A DNA stretch of 63,677 bases, filler included, from Fonticula-like sp. SCN 57-25 (taxonomy: Eukaryota), in assembly GCA_001724245.1 (NCBI GenBank). It is 9 parts of 9 records of this genome, joined end to end, with 100 filler letters (N's around TTAATTAATTAA, not from the genome) between each part and the next. Parts side by side here need not be neighbours in the genome. Positions count along the whole stretch, not along the records: positions 39,566 to 46,048 come from MEDX01000446.1; 8 more parts are not named here. One strand, written 5' to 3'. How positions within the stretch are numbered: position 1 is the first letter of the stretch; each line of letters opens with the position of its first letter. Under the pieces are notes generated by a model. It did no database searches and had not been told where the DNA came from. It saw only the letters and a list, made by a program, of their open reading frames with translations. This document shows, piece after piece, positions 6,507-60,488 of this stretch. The translations under genes were made by a program, and so were the position numbers.

Positions 6507-6606
6507 NNNNNNNNNNNNNNNNNNNNNNNNNNNNNNNNNNNNNNNNNNNNTTAATTAATTAANNNNNNNNNNNNNNNNNNNNNNNNNNNNNNNNNNNNNN
6601 NNNNNN
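6507..6606. other. Artificial contig-joining spacer (first of eight)
   Basis: 44 N + TTAATTAATTAA (stops in all six frames) + 44 N. Identical spacers at 13104-13203, 19698-19797, 26297-26396, 32883-32982, 39466-39565, 46049-46148 and 57129-57228. Genes are cut off at these points. Confidence 0.99.
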
Positions 6607-13103: not shown

Positions 13104-13203
13104 NNNNNNNNNNNNNNNNNNNNNNNNNNNNNNNNNNNNNNNNNNNNTTAATTAATTAANNNNNNNNNNNNNNNNNNNNNNNNNNNNNNNNNNNNNNNNN
13201 NNN

Positions 13204-19182: not shown

Positions 19183-19797
19183 TCAGCGTGGGGGTGAAAA
19201 AGTAGGTTTCATAGTACTTTATGTTTGTTTTCGAAAACATTGCATCAATAAACGATTTACTTTGGGATTCATGTGTATTTTGTGCACGTATCCGCGTCTA
19301 TTTCATGCGTAATACTAGCCGAAAAGAGGACGCAAAACAAGCTCAAACTACTTTGCTCAGATCCGTGGAAACAATAAACGTTTGTATCGCTCGTATGGTA
19401 ATATACAGTCGTGGTAATGCTGATTTCGTGATTATATTGCAATCCTAACTATTCGAACGCGACTGATATACTGCACTATAACTACTCATACACACGCCTC
19501 CCATGCCCATGTTAGCCATTGGAAGCTGTCGACATCACTATGGCAACAAATAGCGCGGCGATTGAAGGGGCGGCCGATGAAGAGGATGACCCGCCGGATG
19601 GATAGGATGCGCCTTCAATGTACACGCTGTAGGGGGAAACCGATTGACCATTCTGCGCAGTGCATGAAAAGATCGGATATTCAGTTGTAACGCAACCNNN
19701 NNNNNNNNNNNNNNNNNNNNNNNNNNNNNNNNNNNNNNNNNTTAATTAATTAANNNNNNNNNNNNNNNNNNNNNNNNNNNNNNNNNNNNNNNNNNNN

Positions 19798-26157: not shown

Positions 26158-26522
26158 GCGCGGCCCAATGAAACGCCAAAACACACAACCAGGAAGTGGG
26201 ATAGGAAATTTCCAGATTTGAGACCGACCGAAACCGACCATTTTGGTGGTGGGCGCACCCCCGACGACCGACCGCGCGGCGAAGTGCCGTACGGGGNNNN
26301 NNNNNNNNNNNNNNNNNNNNNNNNNNNNNNNNNNNNNNNNTTAATTAATTAANNNNNNNNNNNNNNNNNNNNNNNNNNNNNNNNNNNNNNNNNNNNTGCT
26401 GTGCTGACTGTGCCGTGCTGACTCGGTATGGTGAGAATAACAACACCATCCGATCACAATGAAAATCGCATGCGATTCCCGCTTTGTCTTTCCCTTTTCC
26501 CCCGTGGCGAGGCAGCACCACG

Positions 26523-32882: not shown

Positions 32883-32982
32883 NNNNNNNNNNNNNNNNNN
32901 NNNNNNNNNNNNNNNNNNNNNNNNNNTTAATTAATTAANNNNNNNNNNNNNNNNNNNNNNNNNNNNNNNNNNNNNNNNNNNN

Positions 32983-39465: not shown

Positions 39466-39608
39466 NNNNNNNNNNNNNNNNNNNNNNNNNNNNNNNNNNN
39501 NNNNNNNNNTTAATTAATTAANNNNNNNNNNNNNNNNNNNNNNNNNNNNNNNNNNNNNNNNNNNNTGTATGGCATTGTCAATTTCATTGTATGTATAACA
39601 GAATAGTA

Positions 39609-42600
39609 TTACAGTCCTTGCAGCGACGACGCAAAAGAAGAAATCTTGTTTCTCTGCTGCTCCTTTTCGCGCTTTGCCGCCTCGTACTCCTCCTTTTCCT
39701 TGAGCAGCTTTTCGCGCTCGCGCTGCATGAGCTCCGCCTCTGTCGGCGGCTGCGGCACCGCATTGTCGGCCGCCGTCTGCGCGGCGAACCTTGCCGCCTC
39801 CTCCTCGATGCGCCTCTCCATCTCGCGCTGCTTGGCCTCCTCCTGCAGCTGCTTCTCGCGCTGCATCCGCTGATTGTACTCGGCCTCGCGCGCGCGCATT
39901 TCCAGCGCGTCCGACTGGAACTGAGACCAGAGCGAATCGCTCTCGCCGCCCGCCTTGGGCGTCGCCGCCCCCGACGCGCCCGACGTCCCCGCGGCAGCGT
40001 CATCGTCATCGTCCGCCTCCAGGTTGGACCACGCCACCTCATTCGTCAATGTCACCTCCTAAACAAAGGACCAATCAAAATACAATGCTGATGTCAGCTT
40101 TTCATGAAAAAAGCCGCGCAAGCCGTACCGTGTTTTGCGGCTTGGTCGCGATAAAGTCGGGCAGCGGTGCCGTCGGGATGACGGGCTGCGCGTCGAGCTG
40201 GGTGCACGCGTGAGCCGCGAAAGGGAAATGGCGCCGCGTGCGTACGTCCATGAGCATGCTGCCGGCGCCGCTGGGGGCCGCAGCTGGGCGCGACACGTGG
40301 CCGGGACTCTTTGAGCGGTGGCGGCGCTGCTTGCGCGACGACTTGCTCTTTTCGACAAAGTCGTCATCGCCGCTGCTGTCGGACGACGAGGAAGAAGAGT
40401 CGCTGCTGGACGACGAGGACGAGGACGAAGAGGACGCAGCGCGCTTGCGCGAGTGGTGGCTCTTTCGCTTTCGGGAACGCGAGCGATCTGTGGACCGCAG
40501 CAGTGTTAACGCATGGGCCACGAAACATACACAAACAGACAGCAGATACACACGGCACAGACACGGCACAGCACGCGGTCCCTCGTAGACCGAAAGCAGA
40601 GAGCAATAGAGGGGGAAAAGGAGGAGTGGGTGAAGAAGAAAGAGGACGGAAGAGGCGGAGCGAGGCAGAGGCAAACCAATAGACACGACAACAGAGCCAA
40701 ACACCCATGCGTTTATACTTTGTGATAACCCATACTGAATATATAAATATATAGAAAAGAGACAAGCAGCTAACCTCAAAGATGTATTATTTTCGCATTA
40801 GAGGAGAAACATGCCATAAAATTGAATTGGTTTTGAATACTCGAACAAAGCGACAATGCATACTGACACAATCAATACGCACTGCCCTCAACACACGCAA
40901 ACCCTCCTCACAAAGGGGACAGGAACAACAAGAAAGCATATTGGGCAAACCCACACTGACCATGCAGATGGATGCACCGATTACAAACAGTGTATAAATA
41001 TCGCACGTTTGCCTCTCAAGCCCACCTCCAAACCCGCCCCCCTCTGCGCCCATGAAAAAAGAACAGGACAAAGACAGACAAGGAGAAAGTGCGGCCGAGA
41101 GAGCCGGCGAAAATCACGGCAAGCAAGGATGATAGCAAACATTAGATTGAAAAGAAACTGGAGCGGCAACCCCCCAAGAGAAACGAGGCAAACGAGCACG
41201 ACAAGGACGCAAACGAACGCTCAGTCAGAGTCATCACCAGATGAGCTACCTGAATCAGAATCGGAGCTGCTGTCAGAGTCCGACGACGAGTCCGAGCGCG
41301 ACTTCTTCTTGATAGGCTTGGACTTTTTGGGCTCGTCAGGGCGCTTGATGTTCTGCTTGACATAGCGCTCCATCTCGCGCAGCGTGCGCGTCTCGAGCTG
41401 GTTGATGTCAATTTCGATATCGCCAGACGAGTTCTTGAGGTGAGGATGCCTCCGGTGGATAATCTCAATAATCTTGGGGAGCTTCTCAGCCGAAAGAAGG
41501 TTAATGTTCTCGCTCAGCTGCTTCTTCTCCTCAAACGACATCTCCATATCAAGGCGGTCATCCTCGTCGCGCTTCGACTTTGACTTGTGCTTATGCTTGC
41601 GCTCGCGTTCCCGCTCACGCTCGCGTCCGCGGTCGCGCGAGCGCGAGCGGTGCTTCTTCTTCTTGTGCGACGGGGTGTCGGGAGCCTTGGACTTCTTCGG
41701 CGTCTTGGACGACGAAAGAGAGCGCGACGGCGACGGCTTGTGCTTCTTGGCCGACGAAGGCTGCGAAAGCTTCTGCACCGTGCTCTGAAGATTGGCAATT
41801 TGGCGCTGCAGCATGCTTACGCTCGAGTTGGTCGCATGGTCAATTTCGTCGACGGCAACATCCGAGTCGCTGTCGTCGCGCTTCTCAGGGACGATCTTGG
41901 AAAACTTCTTTTCAAAAGTCTTCTGAAGCTTCATCGCATACTGGGCAACGGGGTCCGTCTTGGGGTTGTAGAGCAAGCAGTTGCTAAACACCAGCCTCAT
42001 GTCCTCGGCAAAGTCGGCAGGAGTCGAGTACTCGCCGGAATCAAGCTTAAACGCGACGGTGCCGAAATCCATCGGCTTCTTGATGATGACGGGGTAGTCG
42101 GGCAGGTTGAAGCGGACATAGTCCACGGGCTCAAGGAACGGGGTATTGTACGGGTGGTAGGTGTCACCGGTCATAAGCTCAAGCAAGTGACGGCAAGCCC
42201 GCAGGGCCGGCGTCAGCTTGGCCCGCTTGACCGGCTCGGCCTTGGGGCGCTTGGAGCGCAGCTCGTCCGCACCGCCAAAGGAGCTGCGGCGCTTGCCATT
42301 CCGGGGGCTAGCGCCATCGACCAGTCCGCGCTCGGCGTCCAGCGCCTTGTTCCGCTCCTGCTCGATGGACGCATAAAACTTGGCGAGCCGCTCATCAAAC
42401 GTCTTCTCCAAAGCGTTGGCATCGAGGCAAACCGGGTGATCAGGCGCATTGTATGTCCGGCAGTTGGAAAAGACCAAGCGAACATCCTGGATCCACGCCG
42501 CAATTGACGCATACCTGGTAAAAGTCAATAACGGCCTCTAGCCTGCCCACCGACAAGCGTACTCTTTGCCATCAAGCTTCTTGGAAATCGTGCCGAGGTC

Positions 42601-43303
42601 CATCGGATGCTTAATGATTGTGTGGTAGTCCGAGATGCCCAGGCGAGCCTCATCCACGGGAGCGCTGAACCAGATGCTCTGGCGCATCTTGAGCAACGAG
42701 GAGACAATATTCTTGGCACGTTTGAGGACGTTGTCGGTGAACGGCGTTTCCAAATTGGGCGGCGGGGCGTCAGGGTGACGCTCCAGCATTGCACGGGTCA
42801 TCTCGATGGTGCCCTGCAGAGTTAAAGCGTGAGCAAACCTAAACACTACACACTCTACGACATAGAATACACACCGGCGGCTGCGCAAATTCATCGTAGC
42901 GACTCGACATTTTGCGTACACGCTTGGCGTCGGCTTCGCTGGACGGCGTTGTGACGCCGGTAGAGCCCATCGGCGGGGGAGTTCCGGGCACCGGTGTTGG
43001 TGAGCCCTGCACAAGGCGGGTTTCCAAATCCTGAATGCGACGGTCGCGCTGGCGCAACTCCTCTTCCAGCATTTTGAACCTCGCCTCAATGTCGAAAGTG
43101 GCAGGGGAAGCGACAACCGGTGCGGTCGCCACAGGGGTCTGAGGTGGTTGCGGAAGCGTTCCGCTTTCAGCTGCGGTCTCCGCGGTAGCATTCACGGGCT
43201 GTTGCACCGGTTCACTCACAACGGGCTCTGAAGGCTGAACTGGCGCCTCCGGGGCAACGGCCGGAGGCGTGCTGACAATCGGAGCATCGGCAACATCCGA
43301 CAT
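39609..43303 (-). CDS. BET-family protein (2 bromodomains + ET + SEED), with extra 3' exons encoding a BRD4-like C-terminal region
   Basis: BD1 DYHTIIKHPMDLGTI..NCRTYN; BD2 DYPVIIKKPMDFGTV..NCLLYN; ET MSFEEKKQLSENINLL..IEIDI. In-frame stop at 41221. Phase-compatible splice to further exons at 40487-39609. Confidence 0.92.
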
Positions 43304-43978
43304 TCCCAATCTAACGCGTCAGCAACGGCTGAACAAGCGGGTGCCTGGAGGCGAAGGGAACAAAAAGGTGTGGAAAGTGCAAAAGTCCTCGGGGAACACC
43401 GGATGAACACGACTGGTGAGCAAAAACTCGCTCAAGCAGGCCGTGAACAGCGAGGATGATGCACCGGGGATGGATGCAAATGCGACTTCAAATCAGATGC
43501 ACCCGCCTATTTAAAAGTCGTCAATCCATCTGAAACGGGTATCAAAGAAAGCGCATCCGCGCATCCCAAGCCCATCCAGCGTTCAGAACCACGTACCACA
43601 CACCGGCAGAGCACACTGAAATGATAGAATACGCGGAGAAGTGCAGTGCCGCCGCTCTGCTCCTCCCGACAGACCAACCGCCCAACAGAGGACTACCTCC
43701 GCTAAACTGCCCTCCCACCCGATCGGGGGTACCCTGTTCGCGACCCCCCGAAATGTTTCATGGTGTTGGTTTGCATGATACCCCTCGGCGTGGAGAGGTA
43801 GCTAAGGCGGTTCGAGAGCAAAGGCGGGCGAGCAAAGCAGAAAGTCGACAAAGTGGCCTGCGGCCTACTGGTTCCACCGCTTTAGGGCGAGTTCTTGCTT
43901 GCTATACCCATAGCCTACACGAAATAAGTGACTTCAAGCAAATGATCAGGCGTGACGTCACTGATGACATCATCACAA

Positions 43979-43996
43979 TTTGGCGCCAAACTTGAA
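43979..43996 (+). promoter_or_regulatory. E2F palindrome TTTGGCGCCAAA followed by CHR-type CTTGAA; CRE-like TGACGTCA at 43953-43960
   Basis: Motifs read directly 22-65 bp upstream of the BRCA1-like ATG. Confidence 0.6.
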
Positions 43997-44017
43997 ATCA
44001 CGGCTGCGCTACCGGCG

Positions 44018-46048
44018 ATGGCGGGCGGGTCGCTCGCCACCGAGCTGCCAAAGACGATCCCCACCGTTCTCACTGCACTCAAGAAGGAACTCCAGTGCTC
44101 AATATGTTTATCGCCATTTCTCAATCCGCAGTCTACGCCGTGTCACCACCAGTTTTGCCGCGAGTGCATTCTGCACTCTCTTCAGCTGAAACGCAAGTGT
44201 CCCCTCTGCGTCGAGTCGGTCACGCCGCGTTGCCTGACGGGCAACGAGCGTCTCGCTCGTTTGGGCGTTGCGGTGACCGACCTCATTTCCGCGTACGAGC
44301 AAGAGTTGGATACCAGTACGCCCCTTTTCTGCGTTTTCGATTCTAACCGATCACCAGCGCTTTCCCAAATTCCCGCCAACCATGGGCGGGATTATGCGTG
44401 CGATCCCATTCCCAATCTTTCCCAAGTCTTTCCCGCCCCGCAAAAATCGCAATCGATTCCTGACGACGCGGCGGCCTCGTCGTCGTCACCGGCGCCCACG
44501 CCTGCACGGCGCGCCCCATCTCCGCCACCCACGCGCAGCAGCCGCAGCAAGCGGAGTCGGACCACTCCAGCGCCAGCTTCAACAGAAACAACGACGCCAA
44601 CTCGGGTATCCAACACTAGGAAAGGGCGCGGGTCTTCTACTTCCCTGCGCAGCAGCACGATCTCCTCTTTGAACGAGGCCGCCCAGTCATCGAGTGCCGC
44701 CGAATCCTCGAATGTTCTTTCCACGGCCGCCACGTCCTCGAATGGTCTCTCCGAGGCCGCCCAGCCCAGCGCACCACCGCCCACCGACCGGTCATCGTCC
44801 CCAGTCCAAGCTGCGGCTCCGTCATCCCCTGCGCCAGCTGCGGCTCCGTCGTCGCCCGTCCCAGCCGCGGCCCCGTCGTCCCCCTTCAAAAGTACCCGGT
44901 CATCGGCTCCGATTGACGCTGCGCTGTTCAGCGACCCGCCGCCGCTCTTTTCGTCGCCGGTGCGCCCCAGGCGGCATTTGGGCGGCCCGCCGTCGTCGGA
45001 TCGCGCCGGGCACCTCGTGATGAATGCTGGCGAGGTGATGGGCGTTGGCAGCTCGCAGCCCGACGCATCGCAGGACCTCTTTTTCACCACGCGGCCGATG
45101 GCGACGGTGCTGCCGCCGCCGCCTCCCGCCTTGTCCGCGTCGCCAACAAGCACGGCCACGAACGTAGAGCTCACCGCCTCGGGCCCCGCGCCCCCGCTGG
45201 AAACAGACGAGTCGGCCGCAGTGTCCTCGTGCGACGCGCAGTCGGCGCTCATGCCTGTGGTGTCGTCATCGCCGTCGCCGTGCCACAAGCCGCCAATCAC
45301 AGAAGCCGGCCTTGCAAACGATCAGTTGCGAGACCTGCTCGACTACGTGAGCTCGGTAAGCGCGCTCGTCGAGGAAGACAGGTCATACTTTGAGCATCTG
45401 CTCACCTACTGCCACCGCGAAATCAAGACCATTGGCGCGACTGATTCACCGCCAAAGGTGATTTTTGCGCCCAATCAGGATGAAACGCTCATGGTATGCG
45501 CTATTTTTGCTCGTTCTTGCACATATTAACAATGACGCGCAGGCTGACGTGCTTGGCAATGCGACCTTCGCTCGCGCGATGCACGGCAAAGTAACGCACC
45601 TCATTTGTAGCTCTGAAGGAATGCGGACCGCGCGCTCGATCGACTACCTGACCGCGCTGCTGACCGGTGCATGGATTGTCTCCAGTGAATGTACGGCGAT
45701 GCATTCTTTTTCTTTTCTCTGACATGGCGCAGGGGTCGATGCGTGCCGCCGGTCGGCTACGGTTCTCCCCGAGGACGACTTTGAGATTGTGGGCGACGAG
45801 ACCAGCACGAGCGGCGTCCCTCGGCGCGCGCGCAGATTCCGCGCCCGATACGTACGCGAACAAGCGTACTATTGGTTTACTAATGCGTTGTTGCGCTACA
45901 GGGCCAGGGCCTCTTGACCAATGTAACTGTCGTGCTTCACGGCGAGTTCCAGTCGCCGACCTCGGCTGACCTGCAGATGCTCGTCGAGGCGGGCGGCGGC
46001 GTCCTGCTGAGCGCAAATGGCGGTGTTTCGCCGCCCGTTCGCGACGAC
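44018..46048 (+). CDS. BRCA1/BARD1-like RING + tandem BRCT protein, 3'-partial
   Basis: N-terminal RING ELQCSICL..PQSTPCHHQFCRECI...CPLC, long S/P-rich linker, BRCT VTHLI..RSIDYLTALLTGAWIVS, and a second BRCT start G.F..PTSADLQMLVEAGGG. Confidence 0.85.
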
Positions 46049-46253
46049 NNNNNNNNNNNNNNNNNNNNNNNNNNNNNNNNNNNNNNNNNNNNTTAATTAA
46101 TTAANNNNNNNNNNNNNNNNNNNNNNNNNNNNNNNNNNNNNNNNNNNNGAAAGGAACGGAATGTGCGGAAAAGTAAAATGCATTAATGGAATTGCTCATA
46201 CAAGCAAAAAGTTAGGGAATAAAGGAGAAGTTAACAAGTAGGTGAGGGAATCC

Positions 46254-47536: not shown

Positions 47537-49403
47537 ATGCGGGGCACGAGCTGGATCGCGGCCGCGGTCGTCGTGATGGCGGCGATCGCGATCGCCGCCG
47601 ATGCGCACCCGGAGCGCAAGACGTTTAGAATGAAGCTTTGGAAGTATGTTTTTTCCTTTCTATTGTGGTTTCGTTCTTGTAGCTTACGCGTATCTCTAGG
47701 GATGCCGCCACGGGCGAGTGCGAGGTTCTCGAGTCGCGCTTTGGCCAGATTCACCGCCGCGCAACCGAGCCCACTTCGGTGATCATGAAGCGCTACGCTG
47801 CTGCCGTGGCCGAGGAGCATGAGCCCGTTGAGGAGTTTGGCGAGATCATTGAACTGTACGGCCGCGTTCCCGCGATTGTTGAGCGCTTTGCCGTCACCGA
47901 TGCCGGCTGCAAGTCGCTCCGCGAGCCGACGGCCCCTTCGCTTGAGGACGATTCGGCCAAGGCCGAGGCGGACGAGATTGTTCTTTTGATTGAGAGCGGC
48001 CCGCCGAGCAACCGCATCGACATTGTGTTTATGGGCGATGGCTACACTGTGGACGAGCGCGACAAGCACTTTGCCGACATGGAGCGTCTTACCGACGACA
48101 TGTTTGCGTCGACGACCTTTTTCTCGCACCTCCCGCTGTTCAACATCTGGGCCGTGTTCCGCCCGTCGGTCGAGAGCGGTGTTGGTGTCGGCGGCCGCCC
48201 GCTCGACACTGCCTTTGGCCTGTACCGCGACGGCACCGAGCTGCGCGGCCTGTACTGCAGCAAGCCCATGGCTGCCCGCCAGGCGTGCGCGCTCACCGGC
48301 GAGGACGCGTGCGACTTCCCGTCGCTCATCGGCAACGACGACTTTTACGGCGGCCTTGGCGGTGAGTTCACGATCTCGACGCGCTCGGAGACGAGCGGCA
48401 CCGTTGTGCTGCGCCACGAGCTCGGCCACAACCTCGTCGACGTCGGTGAAGAGTACGACGGCGGCCAGGTGTACTCGGGTGCCAACTTTGCCTCCTCCCT
48501 GAGCAACATCAAGTGGACGCACTGGCTCACCGAGCCCGACAACGTCGTAGCGCAGCAGGCCATGATCCGCGTGCAGGAGTACCCGTGGTACGACCTTGCC
48601 GACGGCACCTACTCGGTCACCTTCAACTCGAACGGCGAGTACGACCGCTGGCTCCTCAAGTTCTCGGCCTCGGGCGTCGAGACCCCCGGCTCTCTCGTCA
48701 TCGAGCTCGACGGCGTCAAGCTCAACTGGACCACCACCGGTGCGTGCACTCTCGCTTGCCCCCCTTGTGCTGACCTTTGATGTTGCAAGGCAACCCTGAC
48801 CGCGGCTTCCACGAGTACCACGGCGACGCTGGCTTTTCGTCGGGCCAGCACACTATTCGTTTCTCGCAGGGCTTTGCCTCTGAGACGGGTCAGATCCGCC
48901 AGCTTTGCAACCTTGTCCTCCACGAGTTCATGAACGAGACGCTCTACCACACCGACCGCGACTACGTCGGCGCCTACCCCACGTGGCGCCAGGGCGGCTC
49001 GATGGCCGGCTACCGCCCCAACCACGAGCGCTGCCTCATGCGCAACATGACCTCGGTCGATTTCTGCGTCGTCTGCGTCGAGGACATGTGGCTCCAGCTC
49101 CTCGAAAAGATCAGCCTCATCGACGACGTCGTTGTCGCCACCGCCGGCGGCGAGGTCACGACGACCCTGCTCGCCATCCCCCTGGCCCACTTTAGGGCGG
49201 AGGGACCGCGCCCGGGAGAGCTCTACGAGGTCACCTGGAAGCGCGACGGCGTTGTGCAGACCGACCTCCAGGACGTGTTCATCTGGTCCAAGCCCGCCAG
49301 CGAGGCGGCCGGCGAGTGGTCCGTCACGCTCCAGTATATCAACCCGGAGATCCGCAGCGATCCGCGCGGCTACACGGTCGATAGCTTTGACTTTGACATC
49401 TAG
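47537..49403 (+). CDS. Secreted peptidase M64 (IgA peptidase-like) metalloprotease, two introns
   Basis: Signal peptide; NRIDIVFMGDGYT, FNIWAV, YGGLGG, zinc motif HELGH..VGEEY, CLMR...FCVVC. Confidence 0.9.
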
Positions 49404-56760: not shown

Positions 56761-57228
56761 ACAGGGCCGTGAGGGGGAGGGGAGGGTCGGTGCGGCCGCG
56801 GGTAAGTGCCGTTCCTTAAATTATCCTTTCATTTCCTAGTAGTATATTCGCCAAAAAGGTGGTAGAAGTCGTAAATGCTATCAATCGATTGGCTTGGCCG
56901 TGTGATGATGGAGGAGTTTAGATGTTGTTGAGGTTGTAGAGGTTTATTCTCAATGCAGTAGAGGAACACGAAGAATAGGAAGAACACAAAGAACAACACA
57001 TGTCCACGAAAGCTACAATATTTATACTAGGGAATTACGTAATAGAGAGAAAGGGATGGAATAGTCTAGAATGATGGAGAGCCGGTCTGAAGCAGTGTCG
57101 ATGACAGGTGACAGAGCGGAAGCTGACTNNNNNNNNNNNNNNNNNNNNNNNNNNNNNNNNNNNNNNNNNNNNTTAATTAATTAANNNNNNNNNNNNNNNN
57201 NNNNNNNNNNNNNNNNNNNNNNNNNNNN

Positions 57229-58590: not shown

Positions 58591-60008
58591 TCAGAGCGCC
58601 GCAGCGACGTGCTTGAGCAGCGGCATGACCTCTGCGCCACAGAACCGCCCGAGCGCCCCCCTGGCCGCCGCAACCTCGTTAAACTGTACAACGCTGTCGC
58701 ATAGGACCCTGTTTTCCGTGGCGCCCTTGATGCTCATGTTGGCGACGGGGCAGAGAACGAACGGCACCGGCTCGCAGCTGTGGTCGCCGTAGATGACGGG
58801 CGAGCTGTGGTCGCCGGTCACGACGACGGCGTAGCGCTGCCCGCCGCTCTCCGGGCGCTCCTCGTCGTGCGCCAGCGCCTCAACGATGGGCGCGACCACC
58901 TGACTGTCGATGCGTGATATCCACTCGACGCGCCGTTCGACCGCGCGGTCGTGCGCCGCATCGTCGACCGCCTTGATGTGCACAAAGCCAAAGTCGTACT
59001 GCCCGCTGGTGATCTCGCGGATCGCGCGATCCGCCTTGGCCGACAGGTTGGTCGCGTAGTCGCCCGTCGCGCCATCCACCTTTAGCACGTCGAGGCCTAT
59101 CGTCGTGCCCAGGCCGGCGATGATGCACGTCGGCGCAATCATAAAGCCACGAAGGCCGTGCAGGTCCTTGAAGGAAGGGACGTCCAGCGCCGCGCCGCAG
59201 CCGCGCAAAAGGACAGCGTTGGCGAGCGGCTTGCCGGCAGACGCGCGCTCGGCGTTGATCGGGTGCGTCGAAAGAATGAGGGACATTTCCGTTGAGAGGG
59301 CGTTCACGAGGCGGCTCGTCATGACAGCTGCAGAGTCAGAGGGGTCGAGCGCGCGACACTCGAGAAGGTGCAGGCTGGGAGGCAAAGGGTCAGAAAGAGG
59401 ATCATTGCAAATACCATGGAAAATAAAGCAAATAAAAGCAGCATACGCCATTACTTCCCTCCCTCGCATGATATGCTATATGACACGTACTTGTCTTTAA
59501 GCGGGTCGGTTCCTGTGATGGCGTCGCTCAAGCCGGGACCTCGTACTCGTACTGCGCAGCGGTGCTCTGTCGCGTACATCACGCTAATTGAATGATCCGG
59601 AAAGTCCTTGAGCTTAAGGCCGTCCAGCGCGGCGCACAGCTCTGGCCCCATGCCCTCAAAGTTTCGATCCGCCCGCCTACTTGTCACGATCCCGGTCACT
59701 CGGTCCATCGTAGCAAAGTTGCTCTTGAACGCAATGTCGCCGGGCTGCATGGACAACCCCGCGCCAATGCTCTCAAAGGCGCCGCGGCCTCTATAGTGCA
59801 CGCGAGGATCGTAGCCAAAAACGCTCATGTGAGCCGTGTCGCTCCCGCACGCGCGGCCGGGCTCCACCGGATCCAAGAGGCCGTTCACGCCGCAAGACGC
59901 GAGATCATCGAGATGAGGGACGGACGCAGCTTGGAGACATGTGCGGTACCCAAGAGAAGGGACAGCAACATCGCCAAGGCCGTCGATCATAATCCACACA
60001 ATACGCAT
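58591..60008 (-). CDS. apgM: Cofactor-independent phosphoglycerate mutase, ApgM/archaeal type, one intron
   Basis: IDGLGD, ACGSDTAHMS, YRGRGAFES, GTDPLKD, NAVLLRG, HIKAVDDAAHD, TGDHSSP, DHSCEPVP. Confidence 0.93.
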
Positions 60009-60488
60009 CCTTGTACGCAACCGGCGGCACGCAGCCGACCACCACCGAACTGGGTGACACACTGCGATCACGTGGCCATATATCAGACTGACGGTCATAC
60101 TGACGGCAGTGCGACGGCCTAAAGTAAGCTGTGCGCAGGTCTTGCCCTCAACCATACATATTCGCACACAGGGGGTATATATTGCCAACTTCCCTATGGA
60201 GTAACTGGGCAGGGTTTATGCGACAAGGAACCGATGTGTTGCCTAAAAGTACGCCTGCTTTTACGTCCGCGTAAGTATTCCAAGCATGAATGGCTTGTCA
60301 ACACTATCCATATCACTCTGCCTACTGAACTGACCGCGGCTGATACTGTGAATGTGTCCCCGTTCAATTCTTTTCTTCTTCCTTCTTCCTTGATCTTTGT
60401 GTTTTCTTTTTCACTTTTCACACAGAACGGCTCGGCAACAAGGGAATAATTATCAACAAGCCCTGCATTGGGAAATAAAGTACATTTC

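Follow-up and report, generated by a model that had tools for sequence, protein, structure and literature searches.

Whether a single gene of a protist can give rise to both a short and a long BET protein, in the manner of fs(1)h in Drosophila and BRD4 in vertebrates, is the question raised by a locus in the genome of Fonticula-like sp. SCN 57-25 (GenBank assembly GCA_001724245.1). The locus lies on the minus strand of contig MEDX01000446.1, which occupies positions 39566-46048 (6483 nucleotides, GC content 0.585) of the window, that is, of the whole stretch of 63,677 bases that was analysed and along which all positions are counted here. It comprises a gene for a protein with two bromodomains (BD1 and BD2), an ET domain and a serine/aspartate-rich (Ser/Asp) run and, beyond a non-coding gap, three further exons on the same strand. 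The explanation that we put forward, and to which we give about an even chance, is that all six exons would constitute one BET gene, with a long form arising if an oversized intron with a weak donor is removed and a short form arising if it is not.

According to this proposal, exons 1 to 3 would supply BD1, BD2, the ET domain and the Ser/Asp run, and exons 4 to 6 would supply a diverged version of the extension of long BET proteins, made up of a basic stretch, a second Ser/Asp run, the motifs W-S-x-L and [F/W]-x-x-F..A-x-E and a Glu/Arg/Lys coiled coil. Production of the long protein (901 or 905 residues, depending on the donor chosen, when exons 1 to 6 are joined in silico) would require the use of one of two weak donors within the last GGT codons of the Ser/Asp run, as well as the removal of an intron that exceeds the others in the gene more than tenfold in length. 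If the intron were kept, translation would stop 4 to 9 codons further on, giving the C-terminus of a 657-residue short BET protein. Both products would be made, in a ratio set by the splicing efficiency of this intron relative to 3'-end formation inside it, and the logic would be the same as that of fs(1)h and BRD4.

A BET gene and the exons downstream of it

It is evident that the minus-strand gene belongs to the BET family, as judged by all three features that were tested. Two tandem bromodomains are recognised by PF00439 (E 5.1e-29 for exon 3, in two stretches, and 2.7e-7 for exon 2), an ET domain follows BD2 (PF17035, E 6.9e-22, profile positions 1-63 of 64), and the translation continues into a Ser/Asp/Glu-rich run placed as in the proteins of the comparison set, which consists of 240 BET hits (226,499 residues) from a search with the BET core. 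The best relatives of the core are about 30% identical, with no close ones in the collection, which also lacks the window protein itself, and in a tree of 34 rows chosen from 241 the window BET protein has a branch of 2.04 on the non-fungal side (Shimodaira-Hasegawa-like approximate likelihood-ratio test 96) with no resolved neighbour. The features of the locus are as follows.

42875..43303, minus strand: BET exon 1, with the ATG at 43303-43301 and a Pro/Ala/Thr-rich N-terminus; donor GTGTGT; codon log-odds 0.09 per codon
42563..42813, minus strand: BET exon 2, first half of BD1; donor GTACGC, followed by a 48-nucleotide intron; PF00439 E 2.7e-7, profile positions 2-47
41221..42514, minus strand: BET exon 3, with the remainder of BD1, BD2, the ET domain, the Ser/Asp run and the short-form TGA at 41223-41221; Bromodomain E 5.1e-29, BET/ET E 6.9e-22
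41232..41249, minus strand: two weak candidate phase-1 donors within GGT codons, GTAGCT at 41249 and GTGATG at 41237; 2.8 and 2.9 bits
40488..41249, minus strand: proposed long intron, which would double as the 3' untranslated region of the short form; 762 nucleotides (750 from 41237); TTAAC branch-like motif, CACAG acceptor
40246..40487, minus strand: exon 4, with an Arg/Lys-rich stretch, a second Ser/Asp run and a basic stretch; donor GTACGC; 0.12 per codon
40129..40197, minus strand: exon 5, 23 residues, Pro-rich; donor GTACGG, followed by a 70-nucleotide intron; 0.47 per codon
39609..40058, minus strand: exon 6, 149 residues and TAA; probably homologous to the tail module of long BET forms, with a Glu/Arg/Lys coiled-coil region after it; 0.43 per codon
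40017..40058, minus strand: tail motif 1, EVTLTNEVAWSNLE, which aligns with V-K-L-K-N..S-W-S-S-L of long BET proteins
39879..39941, minus strand: tail motif 2, SDSLWSQFQSDALEMRAREAE, which aligns with D-S-F-x-Q-F-K-x-x-A-x-E-K-E

A preliminary description of the locus had already laid out this structure, and every one of its coordinates was recovered when the positions were derived anew. Translation and Pfam both bear out its BD1-BD2-ET-Ser/Asp frame with a stop at 41221, and exons 1 to 3 encode the 657-residue protein. The three further exons that it drew, up to the TAA at 39609, are open frames connected through introns of 48 and 70 nucleotides with GTACGC and GTACGG donors; the three peptides that it quoted all come from exon 6 alone. 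Its two phase-1 donors at 41249 and 41237 do lie in frame with the acceptor at 40487, whichever of them is taken, and its roughly 730 base pairs of non-coding DNA with an AT-rich core correspond to a gap of 733 nucleotides (40488-41220) in which the codon log-odds are below zero in all six frames and the GC content falls to a minimum of 0.29 over 120 nucleotides, the AT-rich core spanning 40666-40898. No Rfam family matches anywhere over 39566-43400, and the gap shows no repeat or mobile-element signature and no copy elsewhere in the window.

The coding signal was scored with a table of codon log-odds learnt from 17 Pfam-supported open reading frames of other GC-rich contigs (5415 codons). Per codon and in the model frame, exons 1 to 3 reach 0.09, 0.36 and 0.41 and exons 4 to 6 reach 0.12, 0.47 and 0.43; exons 5 and 6 are thus as coding-like as the BET core (0.47 and 0.43 against 0.41). 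The first in-frame ATG of exon 4 does not come before 40257. A family of DNA repeats (D3) relates the Ser/Asp stretch of exon 4 (40366-40425) to the run of exon 3 (41260-41289) as direct repeats of 70-73% identity, so that the acidic run continues on both sides of the proposed intron.

The place at which the short frame ends is where short BET proteins commonly end. Among the 161 tail-less BET hits, 133 finish within 25 residues of their last Ser/Asp/Glu-rich stretch, as the short form does here, and BET proteins from Mortierella, Mucor, Spinellus and Cunninghamella end in nearly the same way. The stop at 41221, which the preliminary description had called natural-looking, accordingly looks like a natural and canonical BET C-terminus. 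It is also the place at which known isoforms part. The insect short form ends two residues past the run, and the long forms go on from there into a basic stretch; the short form of fish BRD4 likewise departs from the long form directly after the Ser/Asp/Glu run. The split at this locus falls directly after the run as well, and exon 4 opens with an Arg/Lys-rich stretch, like the continuation of the insect long forms. Moreover, a similar parting is found between two Basidiobolus orthologues, P0016 (B. ranarum) and P0143 (B. meristosporus), which are 82% identical up to 8 residues past the run. Beyond that point P0143 stops after 18 unrelated residues, and P0016 has a further 257 residues, leading into a tail that bears the motifs W-A-A-L and W-x-x-Y and an end like the C-terminal motif of long BET proteins. 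This is the pattern expected if one gene model reads through an intron that the other splices, and the pair, which consists of annotations only, looks like a short and a long model of one and the same fungal locus.

Exon 6 and the tail of long BET proteins

The long BET proteins share a conserved tail, in which V-K-L-K-N..S-W-S-S-L is followed by a linker of 15-35 residues, D-S-F-x-Q-F-K-x-x-A-x-E-K-E, a Glu/Lys/Arg coiled coil and a C-terminal motif (CTM). A regular expression finds this tail in 75 of the 240 BET hits and a profile adds four, and in all 79 the tail is on the same chain as the matched BET core, with the bromodomains and the ET domain confirmed by Pfam in the four that were rescanned. 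Exon 6 opens with EVTLTNEVAWSNLE, a motif of the form V-x-L-x-N..W-S-x-L, carries SDSLWSQFQSDALEMRAREAE 26 residues on and then enters a Glu/Arg/Lys-rich stretch. The order and spacing of the tail are thereby kept: both motifs stand in the right sequence, 15-35 residues apart, with the coiled coil after them and the ET domain and Ser/Asp run before them, the scores for the likeness being moderate and sensitive to composition.

A 4-mer filter reduced the 75 tails to 27 non-redundant ones, and with the tail profile built from these exon 6 takes first place among the 1230 open reading frames of the window (E 2e-4, 17.7 bits). Its score is reached by none of 2000 global shuffles, and by 3 to 20 of 1000 block shuffles that keep local composition. 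When exon 6 is aligned with the tails by hhalign, P is 0.0033, or 0.0014 with the Basidiobolus tail added. In composition-adjusted BLASTP, residues 1-73 of exon 6 align with residues 858-932 of P0006, one of the non-animal long BET proteins (30.8 bits, 36% identity, pairwise E 3e-5), over a span of 78 residues that begins at the first residue of the exon. Residues 1-62, which precede the coiled coil, reach E 2.5e-4 and 31.6 bits against all 240 hits, a score attained by none of 500 global shuffles (maximum 26.2) and by one of 500 eight-residue block shuffles. Tails are present in 20 of the 24 subjects matched by exon 6 in BLASTP, compared with 79 of 240 in the database, and 17 of these 20 align from query residue 1 onwards, up to a point 87-145 residues short of their own C-terminus. 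None of these scores took into account that the exon lies just past a BET gene and shares its strand.

Other searches were less productive. Addition of P0016 to the profile gives no better HMMER score (10.7 bits), and BLASTP of exon 6 against P0016 alone gives E 0.30, though at the right place. The Pfam scan of exon 6 returns nothing but noise at E>1. With ESM Atlas features there is no usable match for the whole of exon 6 or for its residues 1-75, the structure rows being generic helical proteins; the Atlas does contain the exon 6 open reading frame from its fourth residue, read as M. Overall, it is likely, though not proven, that exon 6 is homologous to the portion of the long-form BET tail lying ahead of the C-terminal motif.

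The motif itself is another matter. The part of the BRD4 tail that binds P-TEFb is described as its last 34-54 residues (PMC5133849) and as two helices, residues 1318-1342 and 1349-1362 (preprint 10.64898/2026.09.03.749171). The Pfam family BRD4_CDT (PF17105) has no match to exon 6 at E<=10, although a fish BRD4 used as control scores 79.9 bits, and our own CTM profile scores the exon at -20.3 bits under null2; the 12.9 bits obtained when null2 is switched off come solely from Glu/Arg stretches inside the coiled coil. By the CTM profile, exon 6 lacks the basic helix and the hydrophobic end I-D-M-N-x-Q-S-D-L-M-x-x-F-E-E-x-L. The window tail is therefore outside the BRD4_CDT family as Pfam defines it, and its terminal P-TEFb-binding motif has probably been lost or become unrecognisable. 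Since the BRD4_CDT and CTM profiles fail on exon 6, its likeness to the P-TEFb-recruiting domain is limited to the region upstream of the motif. The preliminary description had likened the downstream exons to the BRD4 C-terminal domain as a whole; order, spacing, BLASTP and the tail profile, with its first rank for the last-exon peptide, uphold this for the upstream module, and it does not hold for the end that binds P-TEFb. The CDK9 and cyclin T of the organism lie outside the window.

The proposed oversized intron and its competing explanations

Between 41330 and 41221 there are six GTs, of which only those at 41249 and 41237 are in phase 1, because both sit in GGT codons; from each of them the reading frame would carry on into the exon at 40487, upstream of which stands TTAAC...CACAG. 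Donors and acceptors were scored with matrices learnt from the window by a noisy expectation-maximisation over 138 pairs of open reading frames, spurious ones included, and the scores are hence relative only. GTACG is the GT-pentamer that most commonly has a branch-like motif plus YAG after it at the distance of a short intron (48 of 169 occurrences); GTAAG and GTGAG fall short of expectation, at ratios of 0.52 and 0.66. Across the contigs at 6607-63677, donors are mostly GTACG or GTGCG, many candidate introns measure 40-60 nucleotides and carry a branch motif resembling CTNAC or TTAAC, and AT-rich troughs (GC 0.27-0.45) directly follow many stop codons.

Several results weigh against the joining of the six exons into one gene with a conserved tail. 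The candidate donors score 2.8 and 2.9 bits, compared with 6.4-7.5 for the four other donors of the gene, and the acceptor at 40487 scores 2.2 against 4.0-11.1 for the four others, with TTAAC 20 nucleotides upstream. The donors had been called weak in the preliminary description, rightly so, and the length of the intron is exceptional too, at 750-762 nucleotides as against 61, 48, 48 and 70 for the other four. Exon 4 is low-complexity, its coding signal is weak (0.12 per codon) with one antisense frame scoring higher, and it is open in all three sense frames, so that its open frame proves nothing. The first 100 nucleotides past the short stop have a GC content of 0.49, above that of 11 of the 18 other ends of open reading frames. 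As for the tail, profile scores depend heavily on composition: the HMMER bias term for exon 6 is 18.6 bits; with null2 on, the N-terminal sub-profile is left with 2.2 bits, a score that 24 of 2000 shuffles reach, and the 72-column one with -1.9 bits, which 1432 of 2000 reach; and once P0016 is added, 72 and 251 out of 1000 block shuffles do as well as the real exon under null2. Finally, exon 6 searched alone has no match among longer proteins or among 1.84 billion representatives.

The composition of the 3' flanks is informative about all the gene ends proposed here, without being decisive. In the window, 11 of 18 strong segments of open reading frame that run to a stop have a GC content of at most 0.45 in the next 100 nucleotides. 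The long-form stop resembles them, with a GC content of 0.28 over the 43 nucleotides that are left, the flank being so short because the contig spans 39566-46048. Past the short-form stop, successive bins of 100 nucleotides have GC contents of 0.49, 0.59, 0.44, 0.45 and 0.31; this flank is thus less typical to begin with, but a terminator-like trough lies 400-500 nucleotides downstream. A principal gene end at 39609, with a possible secondary 3' end in the gap, would be in keeping with this context, which does not discriminate between the models. TGTA-type words recur in the 3' flanks, including one TTGTAA about 235 nucleotides past the short stop; words so short are expected by chance, and for that reason they were given no weight as poly(A) signals and not used as evidence.

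It is thus pertinent to ask whether a simpler account would do. If only the long form were made, the intron of 750-762 nucleotides would be removed constitutively and the in-frame stop would be mere intronic sequence. The homology of the tail, the fused architecture of all 79 tail-bearing relatives and the AT-rich flank of the long-form stop (0.28, compared with 0.49 in the first 100 nucleotides past the short stop) would sit well with this, but it would require donors far below the remaining donors of the gene to serve for the removal of an intron whose length exceeds that of the others more than tenfold. Moreover, the codons read through at the donors extend the Ser/Asp run to an end that matches those of 133 of the 161 tail-less BET proteins, and the trough of GC 0.29 in the gap is like those after the stops of other genes; we regard a long form alone as distinctly unlikely. 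A fission of an ancestral long BET gene into two genes we hold to be unlikely. In that event the BET gene would end at 41221, and a separate transcript started in the gap would encode, from the ATG at 40257, a tail-only protein of about 176 residues. The AT-rich core of the gap does resemble intergenic 3' regions, the donors and the acceptor are weak, and exon 4 upstream of ATG 40257 is nearly without coding signal (0.07 per codon) and open in all three sense frames there. On the other hand, there is no stand-alone tail protein among longer proteins or the 1.84 billion representatives, each homologous tail that was found sits on a BET core, and exon 4 goes on with a basic stretch and a Ser/Asp run in the way that animal long forms do past their split. 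Nor does the gap contain a convincing ATG-initiated first exon: 42 combinations are arithmetically possible, and none of them convinces because all need sequence that scores as non-coding.

The remaining alternative, which we consider very unlikely, is that exon 6 resembles the tail by chance, as one low-complexity or coiled-coil sequence may resemble another, and that the downstream exons represent some small, unrelated gene or sequence in decay. The large HMMER bias, the weakness of the motif-only sub-profiles under null2, the block shuffles that reach the real score (up to 251 of 1000 in one setting) and the lack of a Pfam match or a usable language-model atlas match for exon 6 all speak for it. 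It is hard to reconcile, however, with the BLASTP score of residues 1-62, ahead of the coiled coil (31.6 bits, where the best of 500 global shuffles has 26.2 and one of 500 block shuffles reaches the real score), or with alignments that are collinear, start at residue 1 of exon 6 and land 87-145 residues from the C-termini in 17 of 20 tail-bearing subjects. Exons 5 and 6 are, in addition, strongly coding, and no score made use of the fact that the downstream exons follow a BET gene directly and on its strand. One BET gene with a short and a long form thus remains our preferred explanation, at the even chance given above.

Surroundings of the gene and the history of the long tail

The window is made up of nine contigs of 6.4-11 kb joined by linkers of the form N44-TTAATTAATTAA-N44 (at 6507-6606, 13104-13203, 19698-19797, 26297-26396, 32883-32982, 39466-39565, 46049-46148 and 57129-57228). 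The GC content is 0.435 in contig 1 (1-6506), 0.493 in contig 3 and 0.54-0.585 in the others, and because contigs 1 and 3 differ in this way the set may stem from more than one organism. The divergent neighbour of the BET gene (43946-46048, plus strand) encodes a C3HC4 RING finger (Pfam E 2e-9) and a long region rich in Ser, Pro and Ala; the gene runs off the contig, and its further exons seem to be joined by GTACG introns of 42 and 50 nucleotides near 45691-45732 and 45852-45901. Pfam matches on the other contigs include septins, LIM, RGS, oxysterol-binding protein and DAP3. Adjacent open reading frames at 58594-60215 (minus strand) match Metalloenzyme (PF01676) and PhosphMutase (PF10143), pointing to a cofactor-independent phosphoglycerate mutase on a eukaryote-like contig, and one at 47683-48777 (plus strand) matches Peptidase_M64 (IgA peptidase M64, E 2.2e-23). 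A metagenome scan yielded one contig (L001, 1296 base pairs) that is 99.6% identical to 43507-42212, with 5 mismatches; it covers the region of BET exons 1 to 3 and stops short of the tail, and suggests a close strain or haplotype of the same organism. From this contig, and from the presence of the exon 6 frame in the Atlas, the sequence appears to derive from an environmental assembly of a eukaryote.

Among the known systems, fs(1)h of Drosophila is one of the closest parallels in design. It is a single BET gene that yields FSH-S and FSH-L by alternative splicing, the long form being a C-terminal extension of the short one (PMC4053998), with a tail common to FSH-L, BRD4 and BRDT (PMC4053998; PMC5133849). 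As at the present locus, the insect forms part directly after the Ser/Asp/Glu run, the long form then entering a basic stretch, and the tail carries W-S-S-L and F-x-x-F motifs. The differences are that insect tails end in a motif recognised by BRD4_CDT, whereas none is detectable in the window tail; that the distance from the run to W-S-x-L has a median of 351 residues in the tail-bearing hits, compared with about 70 here; and that the fly isoforms were shown experimentally, whereas those of the window are predicted. Vertebrate BRD4, with its short and long forms, and BRDT have the same domain order and tail module, and in fish the BRD4 short form diverges right after the Ser/Asp/Glu run; their bromodomain/ET core, however, is only about 30-35% identical to that of the window, and the helices at 1318-1342 and 1349-1362 that bind P-TEFb in BRD4 (10.64898/2026.09.03.749171) have no counterpart detected in exon 6. 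The short BET proteins (fungal Bdf1-like proteins, BRD2/BRD3 and FSH-S) end a few residues past the Ser/Asp run, as the 657-residue product would; no downstream tail exons are known for them from the data of this analysis, whereas the window has such exons.

The best matches to exon 6 are found in three long BET proteins from outside the animals, namely P0006 (EukProt label Nk52, 1022 residues), P0009 (ENA, 905 residues) and P0016 (Basidiobolus ranarum, 765 residues). Nk52 is probably the ichthyosporean Chromosphaera perkinsii; the main text of PMC5560861 does not contain that label. In these proteins 72-92 residues separate the Ser/Asp run from the W motif, compared with about 70 here, and P0016 has W-x-x-Y where the window has W-x-x-F. 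Unlike the window tail, all three keep a CTM-like end: BRD4_CDT gives 16.5 bits for P0006 and 24.7 bits for P0009, both under its cut-off of 27 bits, and P0016, which has no BRD4_CDT match at E<=0.1 in Pfam, is recognised by our own CTM profile at E 8e-5. Searches of the literature on BRD4 in unicellular holozoans and on BET phylogeny with the CTM turned up, among the papers listed, no work on long tails of non-animal BET proteins, which is not proof that there is none.

The long tail of BRD4, BRDT and FSH-L has usually been treated as an animal feature that links the reading of acetyl-lysine to P-TEFb, and the papers cited here compare only animal and yeast BET proteins. Given that CTM-like tails occur in BET proteins of a Basidiobolus fungus and of a protist in EukProt, the long tail predates animals regardless of this window. 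The idea, raised in the preliminary description, that the short/long switch may predate animals is to that extent supported for the tail as such, through P0016, P0006 and P0009, and does not rest on the present locus. Together with those proteins, the locus puts the tail, and probably the split point too, before the origin of animals. It is possible, if doubtful, that the switch as a whole would be ancestral to opisthokonts or older: an intron immediately past the Ser/Asp/Glu run, which when spliced out appends a basic stretch and a W-S-x-L / [F/W]-x-x-F tail, would then have persisted in this protist, in Basidiobolus and in protists of the ichthyosporean type, and yeasts would have lost it. 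Under the same tentative scheme, the persistence in this lineage of the tail module without a recognisable P-TEFb-binding end would mean that the module serves a role of its own, separate from P-TEFb.

The tail thus appears separable into two parts, an upstream module that is conserved here and a P-TEFb-binding end that is not, and since the module is kept here without that end, its function becomes a question that can be put to the test. Overall, the locus would also provide a simple case of isoform choice, in which one oversized intron with a weak donor lies amid introns of 40-70 nucleotides.

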